A stretch of DNA of 64,000 nt from an uncultured Phycisphaerales bacterium (lineage in GTDB: Bacteria > Planctomycetota > Phycisphaerae > Tepidisphaerales > Tepidisphaeraceae). Below the pieces are notes generated by a model. That model worked only from the letters and a program-made list of their open reading frames with translations. It did no database searches and was not told where the DNA came from. The first letter of the stretch is position 1; the number at the start of each line of letters is the position of its first letter. Where the stretch lies: positions 1,856,001 to 1,920,000 of the forward strand of contig CAVWLP010000002.1 of the NCBI GenBank assembly GCA_963755915.1. The letters run 5' to 3'. The position numbers were made by a program, and so were the translations under genes. Of this stretch, positions 795-54,758 are shown one piece after another.

Positions 795-2471
795 TCAGCC
801 GTTTCCGGGCGTCAAGATCCAAGTGGGTAGCCGGCGTTTCTCAGCGGTCAATTGTATTCCCAGTTGCGAGGCGATCTGGTCGAGAAGCATCTGGGTTTTC
901 TGCTCGGCCTCGAGCGGTGAAAGGTTTCGGGTGCTGAGTTTGGGGGTGGTGAATTCCAGTCGGACATATTTGCACCCGGTCCACTCGTTGATAACGGGGC
1001 GATGCAGCGCCTCGCCGAGGCGGCGGAAATAGTAGTAGACATCGCCGGCCTGGCGGGTTCGGCCTTTGTCGGTATCGAGCGCAATCGAAATTAAATCGTT
1101 GGGCGCGTCGCCCTTGTGGTAAACGCCTTGAGCGACGACCACATCGCGATCGATCGTTGCCTGCACGGCGATGAAGGCCGCGGGGGTGCCCCGGCAAATC
1201 GCTTCAAATGCCGGGAGTTTCTGGTCCGGTGTGGCCCCTTTGCGGATGACCCAGTCGCCTGGAACCTTTAACGCGGCGAGCGCGTCGGGGATCATCGTCT
1301 GGTCAGGAGTGAGGCCGACGAGATTTACCATCAGGCTGTCCACCTGCCAGTAACGATCGTTGGACCGTGTCCAATGTTCGACGCGATGGGTCGAGGGATT
1401 CCACTGGAGGAAAAATGCCGCGACGGGTTTCTGATCTTCGACCTTCAGGTCGGCGATGGTTCCGTTGCCGTGGTTCGGATCGTCGACTTGGTCAAGGTCG
1501 TAAACGTCGTGAACAAAACCGTCGCGCTGGGGGATGTAGGGGGGAAGGATGTTGCGCAGGACCTCGCCGGGCCTGAGGGTGTAGATCGCGTCGAAGCCTT
1601 CGCGCCAGGCAGGCTGGGTGGAGGGGGGAGGAGTAGAAGGCTGATCGGCGGATTGTGGAGCGGCAGGAGCGGTGGCGGTGGGGCTGGAGACAGCAGATTT
1701 TCTGGTTGATGAAAGCAACACCACCGTTGCGGTGGCGGCGATGGCGAGAAAAAGGGCGATGATGGCGGCAAGTGCCTTGGCCTGAGCAAGAAGCATCAGG
1801 CGCGCGGCGCCGCGGGCGATGGCGCTGGCGGCGGGGCTTTGCGGCGCGGCGGCGACGGCCGAGCGCAGGTGGGCCGGGGCCGGGTTGATGGCGTTGGCCG
1901 TCAGGGCTTCGCTCAGTGCCGAACCCGTGCCGGCGCTGCCAGCGCCGAGCATGGCCCGCAATTTCTCGAGCGCGCGGTTCGATCGCTTGGTGGCGGCGGC
2001 GAGGGAGATGCCCATCTCGGCAGCGACCTGGGCGTGGCCTTTGCCGTGGAAGAATCGCAGGATGATGACTTTCCGCTCTGCGTCCGGCAGACGATTCACG
2101 GCTTCGTCAAGCGTCGCGGAAATCGTTTCCCAGTCGGCGGAGGTGGCGTCTGGTTTCATTTCGGCGGCCCTTCTTTCGTGGCGGAGTCGGTTGGCCTGGG
2201 TGCGCAGGGCGTTGGCGGCGCAGTAACGAGTGGCACGGTGAAGCCAGGCGGGGATGACGACGCCGGATCTCAGCGATCGCGCCTTGCGGGCGAGGATGAG
2301 GAATACGGCCTGGGTGACGTCTTCGGCGAGGTGCGGATCGCGGACCTGGCGGCGGGCGGCGGAATAGACGGCGTCGATGTTGCGGGCGACCAGGGCGGTG
2401 AAGGCGGAGTCGGAGCCGGCGACGTATTGGCGGAGAAGGTCGTGGTCCGAAATCCCGGTGTCCGTGGTCAT
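795..2471 (-). CDS. ECF sigma-70 factor with transmembrane helix and large C-terminal extracytoplasmic extension
   Basis: Sigma regions 2 and 4 (DPHLAEDVTQAVFLIL, WLHRATR, LPDAERKVIILRFF), TM helix near aa 232-253, Pro/Ala/Ser linker, ~270-aa C-terminal domain. Confidence 0.9.
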   Translation of the reverse strand: MTTDTGISDHDLLRQYVAGSDSAFTALVARNIDAVYSAARRQVRDPHLAEDVTQAVFLILARKARSLRSGVVIPAWLHRATRYCAANALRTQANRLRHERRAAEMKPDATSADWETISATLDEAVNRLPDAERKVIILRFFHGKGHAQVAAEMGISLAAATKRSNRALEKLRAMLGAGSAGTGSALSEALTANAINPAPAHLRSAVAAAPQSPAASAIARGAARLMLLAQAKALAAIIALFLAIAATATVVLLSSTRKSAVSSPTATAPAAPQSADQPSTPPPSTQPAWREGFDAIYTLRPGEVLRNILPPYIPQRDGFVHDVYDLDQVDDPNHGNGTIADLKVEDQKPVAAFFLQWNPSTHRVEHWTRSNDRYWQVDSLMVNLVGLTPDQTMIPDALAALKVPGDWVIRKGATPDQKLPAFEAICRGTPAAFIAVQATIDRDVVVAQGVYHKGDAPNDLISIALDTDKGRTRQAGDVYYYFRRLGEALHRPVINEWTGCKYVRLEFTTPKLSTRNLSPLEAEQKTQMLLDQIASQLGIQLTAEKRRLPTWILTPGNG

Positions 2472-5673: not shown

Positions 5674-5999
5674 ATGCCCGGATTATGCGCCGGGGCTTCT
5701 TTTATCGGCCGAAACTATTCGGCTCGGCTTGTATGCTACATTGGAGAGATGCGCCGAGCCATGTTGGCCCGGAGCGGCTATGCAAAGATGGCGCTAATTG
5801 CCGATAACGCCAGTGCTAAGGAGTCGGGATTGGCTCCCTGGCTGTCGGAAATCCCTGTGGGAAAATAGGTTTGATTCTGAAGATTAACCAAGCTAATGTT
5901 TTTGGTTCGGGGCGCATGGATGCAACATAGGAGGCGGTCTCCGTCGTTGGGGATAGCCGTTTCAATGCGCGATAAGCCAATCTCGTCTAAGGTGAATCA

Positions 6000-9356: not shown

Positions 9357-10818
9357 TTATTTGCGGCCAATATCGCGCCGGGTTACTTCTTGTTTTAGCA
9401 TAGCCACCACGTCGTTAATAACGGCTTCCCAATCCCCCTCCCTGGGCTGCCGAAAGAGGCGCATGGTCGGATACCACGGCGAATCGTGCCGATCGAGCAG
9501 CCAGCGCCAATCGGGGTAATGGAGCAGAAGGGTCCAGACGGGGCGTCCAAGGGCGCCGGCGAGGTGCGCCGCGGCCGTGTCGATTGAAATCACAAGATCC
9601 AGATTCGCGGTCAGCGCGGCGGTTTGGGCGAAGTCGCGCAGATCTGCGCCAGTCGACGAGTGGCACCTGGGGCGGCGCCTCAGTGTCGGGATCGTGGGGC
9701 TGCACGCAGAAGAAGACCACGTTATCAACCTCCGCAAACGGGGCCAGGAGGGGGCTTGGAATTGATCGATTTCCGCCGTCGGCAAGCATGCGCCGGCCGG
9801 ACCAGGCGAGCCCTACCTTTAATTTGCCGCCATACGGCGCCATTTTTCCTCGCCAGTGCTCGACCAGCGCTGGGTCGGTGTGCAGATAGGGGTTGTCTTT
9901 GGGGATGTGGTGCAGATCGGGACAGAAAATCTGTCCGAGGCTCAGCAGGGGGCAATGCAGATCGAACGATGGAATTGGCCGGCCTGTGGGGACGATCTGT
10001 TCGATCCCGCGCAAGCCGGCGAAAAGTCCTGCCAATTCGGGCAACGACTGAAGCAGGACGCGGCCGCCGCGATCGGCAACGAGCGGGGCAAAACGCGCAA
10101 ATTGGATCATGTCTCCGAAGGCCTGCTCGATATGCAGATATACCCGCTGGCCGGTTAGAGGTTGTCCCATCCACTGCGGCTGCGCGAAATTCCGAGGCGG
10201 GCATAGCGAGGCAATGCGCCTGCGCCATTCGTATTCCGCCCAGCCTCTTTTCAAATCCCCATGTTGAAGGAGCAGGAGGGAATAATTCCAATGTGCTTCG
10301 GCAAATTGGGGTCGTGCCGCGATCGCCCGCTCAAAGGCCCTGCTTGAGTCGGCAAAACGCCGCAGGCGGCGCATTTCATTCCCGATCCGAATATGCGCTT
10401 CGGCCAGATTGCTGTCCAGCGCAACGGCGCACTGGAATTGCGTTATCGCCTCGTCGGTTTTTGACTGATCTGCCAGGACGATTCCAAGGTTGTAATGTGC
10501 CGCGGCGTGATCGGACTGGAGGGCAATCGCATGCTCCAGGCTGGCCACGGCCCGGTCCAGTTGGCCCATTCTTCGGTGGAATTCGCCAAGATTTACGTAG
10601 TAGTCCGCGGCGAGCGGCTTGATCGAAATTGCGCGATTGATCAGGGCTACTGCCGAATCAAGACGATCCGATCCGGCTTCCACGAGGCTTTGAAGCTGGA
10701 GCGCGTCGACGTTGTTCGGATCCTGGGCCAGCACCTGCGTGCAAAGCGACCGAGCCTCGGCCAATCGACCGCGGTTAAAATGATTTAGCGCGAGGATGAC
10801 CGCGTTTTCGAGAGTCAC
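9357..10818 (-). CDS. TPR-repeat glycosyltransferase family 9-like protein (frameshift near 9648)
   Basis: TPR repeats, GWAEYEWR, EQAFGDMIQFARF, LDLVISIDTAAAHLAGALG, DSPWYPTMRLFRQ. Confidence 0.88.
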
Positions 10819-10874
10819 GATAGGGATAGTACCGCGATGTGCGGGATCGAAAAACAAACGGGCGCTGCCGGCGA

Positions 10875-11402
10875 TCATGGCATTGTTACCGGCCAAATTC
10901 CGCAATTGGCTCTTCCGAGGATTTTGGCGAGGACGGTTCCATCATCAAATTCCACGTGTCCATCGCCAAAGAGAATGTTTGCTCCGCCGTTGGGCTGGGC
11001 CGGGAGTTCGTAGGCGATGATGTCGTCCGGCCTCACCGTCATGGTGGTGAATCCGCGGCCCAGATAAACGTAAGAGACATGAGCCGAATCGGCCAGTTGA
11101 TCTGCCGCGGCCTGAGTTGTCGGTCCACTCGCCGGCGTCTCGGATCGCGAGGGTGAGACAAAGACGGGGCTGGTGATGTCCTCATTCAGAAGGATTGTGC
11201 CGAAGGAATCCGGGTATTGGCCGTTAAAGTCTTGGGTGTAGAGCAGGATCGCCTGGCCGATCTGGCGAAGATTCGACATGGATTTGACGCGCGGCGACGT
11301 GTTCGGCTCTTTGTTCTGGCTTGGCAGCAGGAATAGACTCGCGGCGCCGATCGCCAAGACGACCAATATTCCGCCTATCCAGAATGAGCGTTTGGCGGTC
11401 AT
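10875..11402 (-). CDS. Short DUF1559-like H-X9-DG domain protein with N-terminal TM anchor
   Basis: SNLRQIGQAILLY and GGANILFGDGHVE motifs. Confidence 0.8.
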   Translation of the reverse strand: MTAKRSFWIGGILVVLAIGAASLFLLPSQNKEPNTSPRVKSMSNLRQIGQAILLYTQDFNGQYPDSFGTILLNEDITSPVFVSPSRSETPASGPTTQAAADQLADSAHVSYVYLGRGFTTMTVRPDDIIAYELPAQPNGGANILFGDGHVEFDDGTVLAKILGRANCGIWPVTMP

Positions 11403-11480
11403 CAACACTGCTCATTGGGGATAATGCGCCAAGTTGCGATTCGGATTTCGAATTCGATTCGAAATCCCCCCGGATTTCTG

Positions 11481-11509
11481 TTGTCACCATCACACTGGCC
11501 GGTTAAAAT
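11481..11509 (+). promoter_or_regulatory. Sigma-70-type promoter of the ankyrin gene
   Basis: TTGTCA-N17-TAAAAT. Confidence 0.6.
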
Positions 11510-11513
11510 TTAT

Positions 11514-11641
11514 TCGGCCGGTCAGGCGGCCGACGGTCCGCGTGAAGGGAATGTCCCACCTGCTTAAACAATTCAACAGGCGGTCTTGCGACCCCTTCGG
11601 CCCTAAAGTGCGGACTAACGGGCAAAACAGAAGGAGTCGTC
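11514..11641 (+). promoter_or_regulatory. Candidate structured 5' leader RNA
   Basis: Hairpin 11514-11533 plus nested stems 11536-11541/11610-11615, 11544-11549/11593-11598, 11556-11562/11577-11583; SD AAGGAG at 11631-11636. Confidence 0.5.
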
Positions 11642-13185
11642 ATGTTGACGCCCAATTCTTCCGTTCGTTCGATTCCCCCGCGGCCTGATCTGGAGCGCGA
11701 TCGAAAGCAGGCCAAGTCGCTTCTCGATGCTGCGAAGCGCGGTGATCCTGCGGCGCTGGGGCAGTTTAAATCGTTTCATCCTCGATTTGCGGAACTTGCC
11801 GGTGGCGAAGAATTCGCTCTTCACAACGCGCAGCTCGTGATTGCCCGTCAGTACGGGTTTGCAAGCTGGCCGCGGTGGAAGCAGTTTGTCGAAACACGGC
11901 GGCTCGATCGCGCCGGCACGCGGCAGAGCTGATCAAAGCGGCCTCCTCGAACGACGTTCGCAAGGCCCGCGTGATGCTGGAAGCCGAGGCGGATCTCGCG
12001 AGATTTGATCTGGCGACCGCCTGCGCGTGCGGCGAAGTTGAAACGGCTGGCCAAATCCTTGGTCGCGATCCGGGGCTCGCGAAACATAAATTCGGGCCCC
12101 TCAACATCGAGCCGATTCTTTACGCGTGCTTCAGCCGATTCCTGCGGGCCGATCCGGCCCGTGCGCGTGGAATCGTCCAGTGTGTGAGATTACTCCTGGA
12201 CAACGGTGCCGATCCCAACTCGCACTACTGGACCGATTGGGGAAAGGAATCCTGGCTGCAATCGACGCTCTATGGGGCGGCGGGGATCGCCAACAACATT
12301 GAGCTGACCACCATGCTTCTCGACGCCGGCGCTACGGTCGATCCGCACGACGAAGAAGAGGTTCTCTATCATTCGACGGAATTTCCGGACCCGACGTGCC
12401 TGCGATTGGTGCTTCAGCGCGGCAAGCCGCCGGCAAAGCAGGTCAATTACTGCATCGGCCGGGCGACGGATTTTGAATATCCGGAGCACGTTCGGCTGTT
12501 TCTGGAGGCCGGCGCGGACCCGAATTTCCGGGTGAAGTGGGACGGCCTTCGCACGCAGCTTCACAAGGCGGTTTATTTGTCGCGATCCGCGGGCATTGTG
12601 AAGATGCTCATCGACGCCGGGGGTGATGCGAACGCGGTTGATGAGGGCGGCGTCAGCGTCCTTCGCTCCGCGGTGCGCAATGGGGATCGGGAAGTCATCG
12701 AACTCCTGCAATCGCGCGGAGCGCGCGATGAAAGCATCACCGAAGACGACAATCTAAAGGGCGATCCGATTACGCTCTGCCTGGCGGCGAGTCGAAACGA
12801 TTTAAGCACGATCCGCCGGCTGCTGGACGGTGGCGCCGATCCGAACCGTCCGGCTGCGCCGGATCAAACGCCGCCGTTACACTGGGCGGCCTGGCGGGGA
12901 CGGCTGGCGGCCCTGCAGCTTCTGGTTGATCGCGGGGCCGACATTCATTGGCTTAACTCCTACGGCGGCAATGCGATTGGGATGGCGATCCATGGCTCAT
13001 GCCACTGCTTCGACCCCGAAGGCGGGGGAGGCATGAAACTGCCCGAGGAGGCCCTTGCGGGCGAATATCCGCAGATTGTTGAATTTCTGATTTCGCGGGG
13101 GGCAAAACTGCCTGAAAAAATCCAGGGCGGCAGCGAAGCGGTACAGGAAGTTCTGCGTCGTCAGGGAATACCGGATGCGGAATAA
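11642..13185 (+). CDS. Ankyrin-repeat protein with N-terminal 'RPDLE..RKQAK..L / ARQYGFASW' domain (frameshift near 11915)
   Basis: Multiple ankyrin repeats (LLLDNGADPN, TPPLHWAAWRG); N-terminal domain in ORF 11642-11932. Confidence 0.88.
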
Positions 13186-13521: not shown

Positions 13522-13972
13522 CTATGGATGCAAATTCGGATTTTCCACCTGCAATCCTTCGGCGATAGCGGCAGCATTTAATTCATCGTCGGCGGAAACA
13601 AGATAGAAACTTGCGGATGCAGGCGGTTCCGGACTAGAAAGCAAAGCACACGCAAGTTGAAGCGCATCTGCCGCGCCAGTGCGTGCGCCGCGGCCAATGC
13701 CACGGCGCGGGCGATTACCGGGCCTTGCAGCTCGATAATCTCAAAGATTTCTTGCATCTCCCGATCAAGCGTCGTCAGCGCGTTGTAACCTGTTCCGGTG
13801 TTATGCCACGCTCCCGGCCGCGGCGCACGATGGCAGAAGTTACCTCAATATGTGCCAGTCTTGCCACGACAATACGCTCTGATACCCCAGGCAAATTCAG
13901 CATCCACTGACTTCCCGCCTCACGCCGATAGCGCTTTAACAACGCCGATGAATCCAGGAAATACTGGGGCAT
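13522..13972 (-). CDS. vapC: VapC/PIN-domain toxin (two 1-nt frameshifts near 13780 and 13675)
   Basis: YFLDSSALLKRY..E.GS N-terminus; manual re-framing gives ADALQLACAL and LVSADDELNAAAIAEGLQVENPN. Confidence 0.85.
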
Positions 13973-13977
13973 GAAAA

Positions 13978-14253
13978 TTAGCGTCGATCGCGAATCAACT
14001 CATCGGAGAGCGAGCCGCCAGGCATTTCAATCGGTCTCCACGCCATGAAACGCGCCAGGACTTCCGGACTTGGTTTTGGAGGAACTGTTCGTACCACGCC
14101 GCGCTGCCGGAGCAAGTGATCCAACTGCTGCTCGCTTTGTGGTTGAGCCTGCAGGACAGCACGCTCATTAAGCAGACGCACAAGCTGCTCGCGCTCCGCG
14201 TCATTTAGCGCTTGCGCCGCTTGGAAGAGCTTATTCACGTTTTGGCTGACCAT
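13978..14253 (-). CDS. Putative cognate antitoxin
   Basis: 91-aa ORF directly upstream of the PIN toxin, ending GGSLSDELIRDRR, typical of VapB-like C-termini. Confidence 0.75.
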   Translation of the reverse strand: MVSQNVNKLFQAAQALNDAEREQLVRLLNERAVLQAQPQSEQQLDHLLRQRGVVRTVPPKPSPEVLARFMAWRPIEMPGGSLSDELIRDRR

Positions 14254-14480: not shown

Positions 14481-15990
<1,510 letters not shown>

Positions 15991-39482: not shown

Positions 39483-39593
39483 ACGCTGGCAGTGACCTAC
39501 TTTCCCGCTGAAGCAGTATCATCGGCCCGGCAGGCTTAACGACCGTGTTCGGAATGGGAACGGGTGTGACCCTACCGGTGTAGCCACCAACGA
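39483..39593 (-). rRNA. rrf: 5S ribosomal RNA
   Basis: Reverse complements of CCCGTTCCCATTCCGAACACGG and GTAGGTCACTGCCAG; terminal stem. Confidence 0.96.
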
Positions 39594-39715
39594 AGTCCCG
39601 AAAGGAGGGTTAGCCCCGATCGGGATGTTATTTCGAAGGAATATGAGGTTCTTCCGCGTTATCGAACACTCTTTTTGGAAACGTCTATTTTGAGATAGAC
39701 AGTTCTCGATAAAAG

Positions 39716-42658
<2,943 letters not shown>

Positions 42659-53604: not shown

Positions 53605-54758
53605 TTATTCCGCCCGCGCGGGAATGGATCGGTGCTCAAGCTCAAAATCCGCCGACGGCATCTTCGCGTAAAACGCCTTGCTCCTGGGATTCAGGTATTC
53701 CGTCAATTCATCCCCGTCGAGCATCAGTTTTCCCGTGCTGGGATATTTGATCGCCACCGCGGCCGGCGCCTTGGGGGCGTCGATCCGCTGCGGGGAGCGA
53801 AAAATCCACACCCGGTCGGCCAGATTCTGCTTCAAAAAACTGTCGGCCAGCTTTCGCCCCGGTTCCACCAGCAGATGGACCAGCCCGCGCTTCCCGAGCT
53901 CATCCAGCAGATATTCCAGCGACAGCCCGCCATGCTCGTCGGCCGGGATCGGCAGGACTTCAACCTCGCGGGTGTTCAGCTCGGAGACCAGGTCCGCGTT
54001 CTGATTCATCGTCGCCTGCGAGCAGCAGATGACCGTGGGAATCTTCTTGGCAGTGCGAATGATCTGGCTGTCGAACCCGAGCCGAAGGCGCGAATCCAGC
54101 ACGATTCGCAGAGGGGTCGTACGCGGATTGGAGACGCGCGCCGTCAATAGCGGGTCGTCAGTCAGCGCCGTTCCGATGCCCACAAGAATCGCATCGCAGC
54201 GTGACCGAAGCTGATGCACCAGTTCCTGCGAGGCTTCGTTGCCGATCGCAACCCGCTTGCCGCCGGGCCCGGCGATCTTGCCATCCGCGCTGTGCGCCCA
54301 TTTCAGGATCACGTAGGGCCGGCGCTGTGTCCGGGCTTTGAAATAGGCGGCGTTGAGCTGCCTGGCCTCTTCATCCCGCAATCCTTCTTCAACGGTAATC
54401 CCCGCCTCACTGAGCATGTTCAGCCCCTTGCCGCAGACCAGGGGATTGGGATCAAGGCACGCCGCCACCACGCGCGAAACCTTCGCCGCGATCAGCGCCG
54501 TGCGCACGCCGGGGTCTTCTTATGTTCGTGCGGGCAGCAGGGTTCCAGCGTCACATACGCGGTCGCGCCGGCGGGATCGGCGCACGCCGCCAGGGCGTTG
54601 GCCTCCGCGTGCGGGCTGCCGAAACGCTGGTGATATCCCTCTGCGATGATCTGCCCATCGCGCACCAGCACGCACCCGACCATCGGGTTGGGCTCCACGT
54701 TTCCGCGGCCCCGCATGGCGATCTCAATCGCACGCATCATGGGATCAGATTCAGACAT
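53605..54758 (-). CDS. ribD: Bifunctional riboflavin biosynthesis deaminase/reductase (frameshift near 54503)
   Basis: PNPMVG, HAE, TLEPC, KWA.S.DGKIA, DDPLLTAR. Confidence 0.95.

Follow-up and report, generated by a model that had tools for sequence, protein, structure and literature searches.

A predicted leader RNA with two covarying pseudoknots, coupled to a basic N-terminal module of bacterial ankyrin-repeat proteins

The stretch of DNA analyzed here, referred to as the window, comprises 64,000 nucleotides (nt) of contig CAVWLP010000002.1 from an uncultured soil bacterium of the Phycisphaerales (phylum Planctomycetota). In front of a gene that encodes a small basic N-terminal module and ankyrin repeats, it contains a leader that, judged from comparative analysis of sequences, belongs to a family of structured 5' leaders that is widespread and has not been catalogued. 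Every helix of the conserved fold is supported by covariation, and the leader is coupled to the module almost without exception. We are confident that this structured leader is functional and acts in cis, and it is very likely a translation-control device. The original prediction had described a conserved leader that regulates in cis and is associated with the N-terminal module, and this core of it holds with respect to conservation, covariation and coupling. As to the agent that acts on the leader, for which the original prediction offered both autoregulation and an orphan riboswitch, we favor, tentatively and at slightly less than an even chance, autoregulation by the basic module of its own gene, which would lock a fold that sequesters the Shine–Dalgarno (SD) sequence.

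Conserved fold and covariation

Covariation was evaluated in two alignments. A5 is a model-based alignment of 101 leaders, and A8 contains 40 leaders found via protein searches or whole-genome model searches, independently of the sequence pattern described below. Two covariance models were used: R1, for which 7 leaders other than the window's were used and only the helices P0, P2 and P3 were entered as pairs, and R2, built from A5 with the window's row included. The helices P1 and PK1 are absent from both models. The model-made alignments are biased toward P0, P2 and P3, A8 is biased toward the SD helix as well, and the inner P1 pairs in the A5 set were fixed by the search pattern. A MAFFT alignment of 33 leaders (A3) proved unusable for register-shifting stems, and the model-based alignments were used in its place.

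In A5, 90.8% of the cells were paired, compared with 83.8% in shuffles. The covariation score was 0.281 versus 0.161 for shuffled alignments; none of 500 shuffles attained it, and slid partners gave 0.056-0.096. In A8, 94.1% of the cells were paired versus 80.6%, the score was 0.425 versus 0.180, and 28 of the 34 pairs were changed on both sides. P1 and PK1 covary although neither pairing was given to a model. G-U pairs are frequent in the helices, consistent with an RNA transcribed as the sense strand. The original prediction had named conservation and covariation upstream of module homologues as its check; the former was found, and the latter appears in both A5 and A8.

The element measures about 110-150 nt in the family and combines two pseudoknots with a variable linker (Table 1). 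The hairpin P0 (TCGGCCG/CGGCCGA in the window), the 7-bp hairpin of the original prediction, is conserved and shows compensatory pairs in A5 at 9:32 (GC70/AU16/UA6/CG3) and 11:31 (CG47/UA22/UG9/AU7/GC7), with covariation in A8 as well. The pseudoknot PK1, which was first proposed by RNAalifold, covaries in A5 (22:84, AU66/GC18/GU9/CG3) and in A8 (21:71, AU29/CG6/GC3; 16:72, CG22/AU8/UA3). For P1, 100% of the A5 cells are paired, with an outer pair of GC85/AU11/GU4 and zero unpaired; in A8 the figure is 98.7%, and four of the six pairs are altered on both sides. Variants recognized by eye are GUCUGC/GCAGAC in locus L150 and GCCUGC/GCAGGC in locus L165.

The purine junction that follows P1 (A5 columns 52-56) is G in 101, G in 99, A in 73 or G in 28, A in 101 and A in 101 of the 101 leaders, and no covarying partner was found for it. 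P2 is 99.8% paired in A5 (61:74, CG72/AU21/UG6; 59:76, GC90/AU8/GU2/CG1) and 100% paired in A8. The linker between P2 and P3 differs among family members in both length and sequence. P3, which is also drawn by the window's own minimum-energy fold, covaries in A5 (137:204, CG56/UA30/UG11; 135:209, CG87/UA9/GC3) and is 94% paired in A8, with five of five pairs altered on both sides.

Table 1. Positions of the leader elements and of the gene parts in the window
Feature	Position	Strand	Description
Sigma-70-type promoter	11481-11509	+	-35 TTGTCA 11481-86, 17-nt spacer, -10 TAAAAT 11504-09; 10/12 matches
P0, 5'-terminal hairpin	11514-11533	+	7 bp, 11514-20 with 11527-33; loop GUCAGG 11521-26
Pseudoknot PK1, 5' side	11523-11526	+	CAGG of the P0 loop; pairs with CCUG 11559-62
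P1, 5' strand GUCCGC	11536-11541	+	Pseudoknot with GCGGAC 11610-15 in the P3 loop
Conserved purine junction	11542-11546	+	GUGAA in the window, GGRAA in the family
P2 hairpin	11547-11557	+	GGGA 11547-50, loop AUG, UCCC 11554-57
Pseudoknot PK1, 3' side	11559-11562	+	CCUG, after the P2 hairpin
Variable linker	11563-11588	+	Contains the lineage-specific CAGGCGG 11577-83, able to pair with CCACCUG
Anti-SD pyrimidine tract	11589-11598	+	CGACCCCUUC in the window, ACCUUCUUUC in most members
P3 hairpin	11600-11623	+	GCCC 11600-03 with GGGC 11620-23; loop bears the P1 3' strand GCGGAC 11610-15
SD region and start codon	11630-11644	+	GAAGGAGUC, GGAG 11633-36; ATG 11642-44; SD pairing region 11630-38
N-terminal module open reading frame	11642-11932	+	96 codons as the window reads; TGA 11930-32
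Frame break	11913-11929	+	Window one base short compared with short public contigs
Ankyrin-repeat part	11875-13185	+	-1 frame relative to the module frame; Ank families, E 1e-26 to 1e-13

All sequence features listed by the original prediction occur in the window, yet the secondary structure that it drew from them is half wrong. Two of its four stems, the P0 hairpin and GTCCGC/GCGGAC, are conserved. The latter covaries, not as the nested stem that had been drawn but as a pseudoknot into the P3 loop. The other two stems are not conserved. GAAGGG (11544-49) with CCCTTC (11593-98) is paired in 82.9% of cells versus 83.1% in shuffles, and a slide of -1 gives 90.1%; this pairing is generic purine–pyrimidine complementarity. 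CCACCTG (11556-62) with CAGGCGG (11577-83) is specific to the lineage, reaching p<=0.05 in 4 of 101 leaders. In the window and in G001, a genome of the same genus, this duplex has an energy of -8.6 kcal/mol (z = -4.2) and competes with P2 and with the covarying PK1. Missing from the drawing were both pseudoknot topologies, P2, P3 and the anti-SD tract.

Distribution of the leader and its coupling to the module

Identity to G001 is 90.7% over the leader (117/129 columns), 89.6% over the coding sequence, 79% at third codon positions and 46.9% in the DNA preceding the hairpin. Leader and module are each present as a single copy in the window's own genome. When 61 related genomes were searched with the window's module, 9 places in 8 genomes were obtained, the window's own included. 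All 8 foreign copies bear a recognizable leader, whatever the C-terminal part of the protein (ankyrin, VOC/glyoxalase or other).

A strict pattern derived from the alignment of these relatives matches the window once and 100 shuffles not at all. Run on bacterial and archaeal genomes with each species represented once, it gave at least 120 matching stretches. Among the matches listed, most are from Acidobacteriota; the others listed are from Actinomycetota (Amycolatopsis, Nocardiopsis, Rugosimonospora, Solirubrobacterales), Gemmatimonadota, Alphaproteobacteria (Rhizobium, Ensifer, Sulfitobacter), Planctomycetota, Armatimonadota, Poribacteria and others. A search with R1 returned 101 matches in 100 sources, including the window and two relatives missed by the pattern. 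The window's leader scores 55.9 bits (E 7e-13, 11511-11647) against R1, which was built without it, and 76.4 bits against R2, whose source alignment A5 contains the window's row. When four samples, each of 151 genomes from one phylum or class, were searched by model, the RNA turned up in 8-13 genomes per sample, roughly 5-9%; the sample centers for the Acidobacteriota, Amycolatopsis-phylum and Rhizobium-class searches had been chosen as carriers of the RNA.

The coupling to the module is illustrated by searches from both directions. With module detection by a profile from alignment A7 (E<=1e-3), a module was found within 420 nt after 98 of the 101 pattern-found leaders. The suggestion in the original prediction that similar leaders precede other module genes is fully borne out. 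The three misses are a leader at the end of its locus (L088), a gene truncated to its first ~24 codons (L031) and a degenerate copy (L012). RNA-first searches of whole genomes (E<1e-5) gave 15 places in the 61 relatives, 14 of them with a module. In the window's phylum, all 14 places (10 of 151 genomes) adjoin module matches, and in the phylum of G456, an Acidobacteriota metagenome-assembled genome, 13 of the 14 places (13 of 151 genomes) have a module and the remaining one lies at a contig end. The phylum of the Amycolatopsis genome gave a module at 7 of 7 places, with an eighth, weaker match (27.9 bits) without one; all eight are in 8 of 151 genomes. In the class of the Rhizobium genome, 12 of 12 places in 8 of 151 genomes have a module. 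At this threshold, only two RNA-first matches lack a module, one true exception and the one at the contig end.

A protein-first search of 401 genomes from the window's phylum detected the module in 31, at a maximum of 4 copies per genome. A leader (E<1e-5) was present at 23 of the 30 loci fetched, which corresponds to 23 of the 24 best-scoring modules (E<=4.5e-17). Clustering of genes in about 120 loci revealed no conserved neighbor genes, and the recurrent 'families' were antisense shadow reading frames.

Several further observations concern the copies themselves. Several genomes hold 2-4 leader/module copies, and one Acidobacteriota-type contig (L101) carries two leaders, 1814-1949 (-) and 5690-5827 (+), within 4 kb. 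Some downstream proteins (L190, L200, L206) have two tandem module copies, seen as two profile matches in one frame. In genome G154, a copy of low GC content (0.42) and 10.5 bits at L160:1767-1905 (-) shows by eye a P1-like UCCUA/UAGGA and stands before a divergent module gene; this sequence hints that the family may reach beyond what the models detect. A plasmid collection queried with the Rhizobium copy gave no match. Mimicry of ribosomal RNA (rRNA) by a 17-mer of the core was rejected: with up to 3 mismatches, its matches in the window were the leader and one site at 54425-54441, outside the rRNA genes and at chance level by shuffles.

Masking of the ribosome site and candidate mechanisms

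The pyrimidine tract before P3 pairs with the SD region, and in the window this duplex has an energy of -14.9 kcal/mol. Across the family, duplexes between the SD region and the 14 nt preceding P3 average -13.4 kcal/mol, versus -7.0 kcal/mol for a shuffled tract, and in 93 of 96 leaders no other linker window is a better SD partner than this tract. In A8, an alignment fitted to this helix, its 10 pairs are 91.7% paired and 9 of them are altered on both sides. In the computed fold, the helix stacks beneath P3, whose loop forms P1. Because it is compatible with all the other helices, the fully folded RNA would represent the closed state, in which the ribosome-binding site is hidden. By computation, the leader has the features of a riboswitch-type element, namely, a covarying structured 5' untranslated region and an expression platform joined to the core. 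An RNA thermometer in the form of a simple SD-masking hairpin was rejected, given the two covarying pseudoknots and the invariant junction nucleotides.

We propose that the leader governs translation initiation of the downstream module and ankyrin gene. The module may bind the conserved core, consisting of the GGRAA junction, P2 and PK1, and its binding would lock the SD-hiding fold and alter the equilibrium of open and closed forms. Promoter, leader and module would together constitute a self-limiting expression cassette that is joined to ankyrin, VOC, LRR and TPR domains. Autoregulation of this kind is consistent with the linkage to the module, which persists across the four phylum/class samples while the C-terminal domain changes, with the lack of any other recruited kind of gene, and with the positive charge of the module. 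With somewhat more reserve, we suggest that the leader and the module of ~85 residues could be a new RNA–protein pair, a portable cassette present in at least four and probably eight or more phyla, with the module as a new RNA-binding domain.

Several observations weigh against regulation by the module. All helices of the fold are mutually compatible, and no covarying alternative 'open' fold was found. The core nucleotides are near-invariant across phyla, which is commoner in metabolite aptamers than in protein operators. No RNA-binding fold was recovered for the module: a profile search of the PDB gave only designed helical repeats (E>=0.002), and the best Foldseek match in the PDB had an E value of 4.1, with a template-modeling score below 0.3. 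On the genomic side, L151 has a good module (E 2.7e-18) and no leader match at all. The divergent module genes of L155-L159 also lack a leader, and that of L160 is doubtful at 10.5 bits; among the six weakest of the 30 module loci, five have no leader match and the sixth is L160. Conversely, genome G055, which is 93% complete, has a well-formed leader (45.5 bits with R2) and no module by profile, the only clear case of its kind. This leader (L165:1276-1496 (-)) keeps all helices, with P1 altered on both sides at two pairs, and precedes a 27-codon reading frame that overlaps, at its stop, the beginning of an unrelated frame of ~290 codons without a Pfam family.

The invariant unpaired GGRAA purines, the two pseudoknots and the integration of the SD into the fold, together with the recurrence of the same core in several phyla, could also be explained by an orphan riboswitch, which we consider unlikely, if the most serious competitor. 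Here the double-pseudoknot core would be an aptamer for a small molecule or ion, and the ligand would stabilize the SD-hiding fold as a translational OFF switch. The regulon would consist of the module proteins alone, because the function responding to the ligand would be the one that the module defines. The G055 copy, found in a genome without a detectable module gene, fits such a switch, and in view of the missing Rfam match it would be a new class. Its gene context speaks against this: a gene without the module follows the leader once in ~60 RNA-first matches, and a transporter or enzyme gene, whose absence is unusual for a widespread riboswitch, was never found behind it. A single protein family follows, there are no conserved neighbors, and the context suggests no ligand. 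Moreover, no alternative ligand-free pairing has covariation support.

It is less probable still that the leader answers another factor (a helicase, a ribosomal component or an RNase) or temperature, or that it serves 5'-end protection and mRNA stability. Such roles would leave the near-obligate coupling to one module unexplained, and thermometers or stabilizers need neither two covarying pseudoknots nor invariant junction purines. They would agree with the strong SD helix, which is constitutive in the conserved fold, with the position of P0 at the predicted start, as is typical of stabilizing 5' ends, and with the presence of the G055 copy in the absence of a module. Finally, that there is no RNA element, only chance complementarity or a DNA-level operator or palindrome, is very improbable: the single leader of the window folds no better than shuffles (z = -1.02; 33 of 200 fold equally well) and P0 resembles a terminator on the minus strand, but every helix has compensatory changes, the G-U pairs would become A-C mismatches if the opposite strand were read, paired segments are separated by as much as ~75 nt, and the gene upstream is divergent and runs away from P0, leaving nothing on the minus strand to terminate.

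The original prediction had recognized no riboswitch in the leader, and Rfam 15 likewise holds no matching family for the copies tested. At gathering thresholds, the window gave only rRNA and tRNA matches, none in 11350-11750, and this interval gave 0 matches at E<=10. Seventeen other loci had 0 matches at gathering thresholds, and L009 and L018 had only weak ones at E<=10; BcKCsr2 was rejected as the family of L009 (17.3 versus 40 bits, misaligned). Literature searches of article full texts found no description; a prior listing under another name in the supplementary tables of an RNA-discovery paper is possible. As far as checked, the family, its fold and its partnership with the protein module are new, and the kind of leader, one that masks the SD, is already known.

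The SD-sequestering pseudoknot riboswitches SAM-II (RF00521), preQ1-II (RF01054) and preQ1-III similarly unite a pseudoknot and burial of the SD in a 5' untranslated fold with conserved unpaired nucleotides, and they are found in multiple phyla. The present leader differs from them in being larger, with two pseudoknots and a variable linker, in having no Rfam match, and in being tied to one protein module and not to a metabolic regulon. Autoregulatory mRNA operators bound by their own product, such as the E. coli rpsO/S15 pseudoknot, ribosomal-protein leaders and phage T4 gene 32, provide a second comparison. Like these operators, the leader is pseudoknotted, lies beside the SD, is linked one-to-one with a gene for a basic domain and points to translational control. 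In contrast, the module is no known RNA-binding protein and has no recognizable fold relative, and the family spans multiple phyla, with up to 4 paralogues per genome and one leader without a module. The orphan motifs yjdF and raiA are also tied to essentially a single gene family, and they resemble the present case as complex conserved leaders that accompany a family of unknown function. Their sequence and structure are unrelated, and in the present family it is an N-terminal domain that stays constant beside the leader, the remainder of the protein being variable.

Uncatalogued structured leaders of this size and spread have become rare, and this one occurs in four major soil phyla/classes. 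Either outcome would be new, a riboswitch class or an RNA-binding protein domain with its operator. The leader would define when the ankyrin proteins are made and offers a first functional handle on a large bacterial ankyrin-repeat family, whose role the trigger would point to. Rhizobium, Ensifer and Amycolatopsis, cultured carriers among the matches listed, make it directly testable.

Promoter, reading frame and protein of the window's locus

The sigma-70 promoter of the original prediction is present in the sequence. In 90 of 100 family members, a TANNNT box starts 9-24 nt ahead of the first P0 pair, and in 87 of them it falls at -14 to -11 (-12 in the window); a control stretch placed another 25 nt upstream has such a box in 8 of 100. 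Since this -10 box keeps a fixed distance before P0 across the family, the RNA very probably begins at the base of P0, with a predicted start at ~11514-11517. The transcript leader is estimated at ~126 nt (about 11516-11641), close to the ~125 nt first proposed. In G001, TTGTGA-18-TATAAT is kept at the promoter position, and the surrounding DNA is merely 47% identical. Just 5' of the -35 box, between the divergent genes, the window has a perfect 11-nt inverted repeat (11443-11467; GGATTTCGAAT / ATTCGAAATCC, 3 nt between the arms), one arm of which is retained in G001. This repeat may serve as a transcription-factor operator.

The fusion of module and ankyrin repeats described by the original prediction appears in the window as two open reading frames (ORFs) in different frames, which the extra base of public contigs joins by our reading. 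These contigs stem from four public runs of a single soil-metagenome study and match the stretch at >=99% identity, with parts of 11564-11930 uncovered in some runs. They confirm the leader: there is no difference over 11400-11563 and one over 11410-11837, at the coding position 11825. The match of the contig from run X3 ends after 11914 and continues with 16 letters in place of the window's 15; the contig from run X4 shows the mirror image of this break at 11913. Read from these contigs, the extra base would place module and ankyrin repeats in one frame of ~514 codons. In G001, a different insertion or deletion (indel) interrupts the gene at this GC-rich spot, more distant full-length homologues are single long ORFs, and G000 and G001 combine few contigs with low completeness (81% and 66%), which fits indel-prone assemblies. 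For these reasons, the frame break is probably an assembly error, or otherwise a strain variant.

The ankyrin ORF matches PF00023 (88.9 bits versus a cut-off of 21.1) and related Ank families. Legionella Dot/Icm Ank effectors (NCBIfam equivalogs) were rejected at 39 bits versus a cut-off of 600, a likeness at the level of the repeats only, and PADLOC returned ankyrin-type matches only. Ankyrin repeats are present in 81 of the 92 full-length downstream proteins; 3 have a glyoxalase/VOC domain, and TPR, LRR and DUF4440 occur in one each. The module is basic (mean net charge +3.3, isoelectric point (pI) 9.4, 90% of copies positive), and the remainder of the module-bearing proteins is acidic (pI 6.0). 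Its AlphaFold (AF2) model has five helices, with a predicted local distance difference test score of 78.9.

The window's module ORF matches no Pfam or NCBIfam family, and the ESM Atlas gave only unnamed clusters for the module. The closest likeness is to Pfam PF20066 (Glyoxalase_8, 'Glyoxalase superfamily protein'), whose first ~80 profile positions align with the module. At E<=1, 39 of 105 modules touch this part (best 4.1e-5), and residues 8-83 of L079 align to positions 5-80. In contrast to a true member, the best score is below the Pfam cut-off (21.9 versus 23.7 bits), the window's copy has no match, and most proteins of the present family bear ankyrin repeats and not a VOC domain. A full-text literature search for PF20066 gave no paper.

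The neighboring TPR-repeat gene, 9357-10905 (-), appears split as well. Its 496-codon ORF (9415-10905) overlaps a 142-codon ORF (9357-9785) in a different frame, and the C-terminal part of the longer one reads like out-of-frame sequence, which fits an indel-prone assembly. Elsewhere in the window, the 16S rRNA gene lies ~24 kb from the 23S-5S pair (14487-15990; 39484-42657 (-)), so that the rRNA genes are unlinked. Two small adjoining ORFs at 13775-14253 (-) resemble a PIN-type toxin and its antitoxin, by reading of the translations alone.

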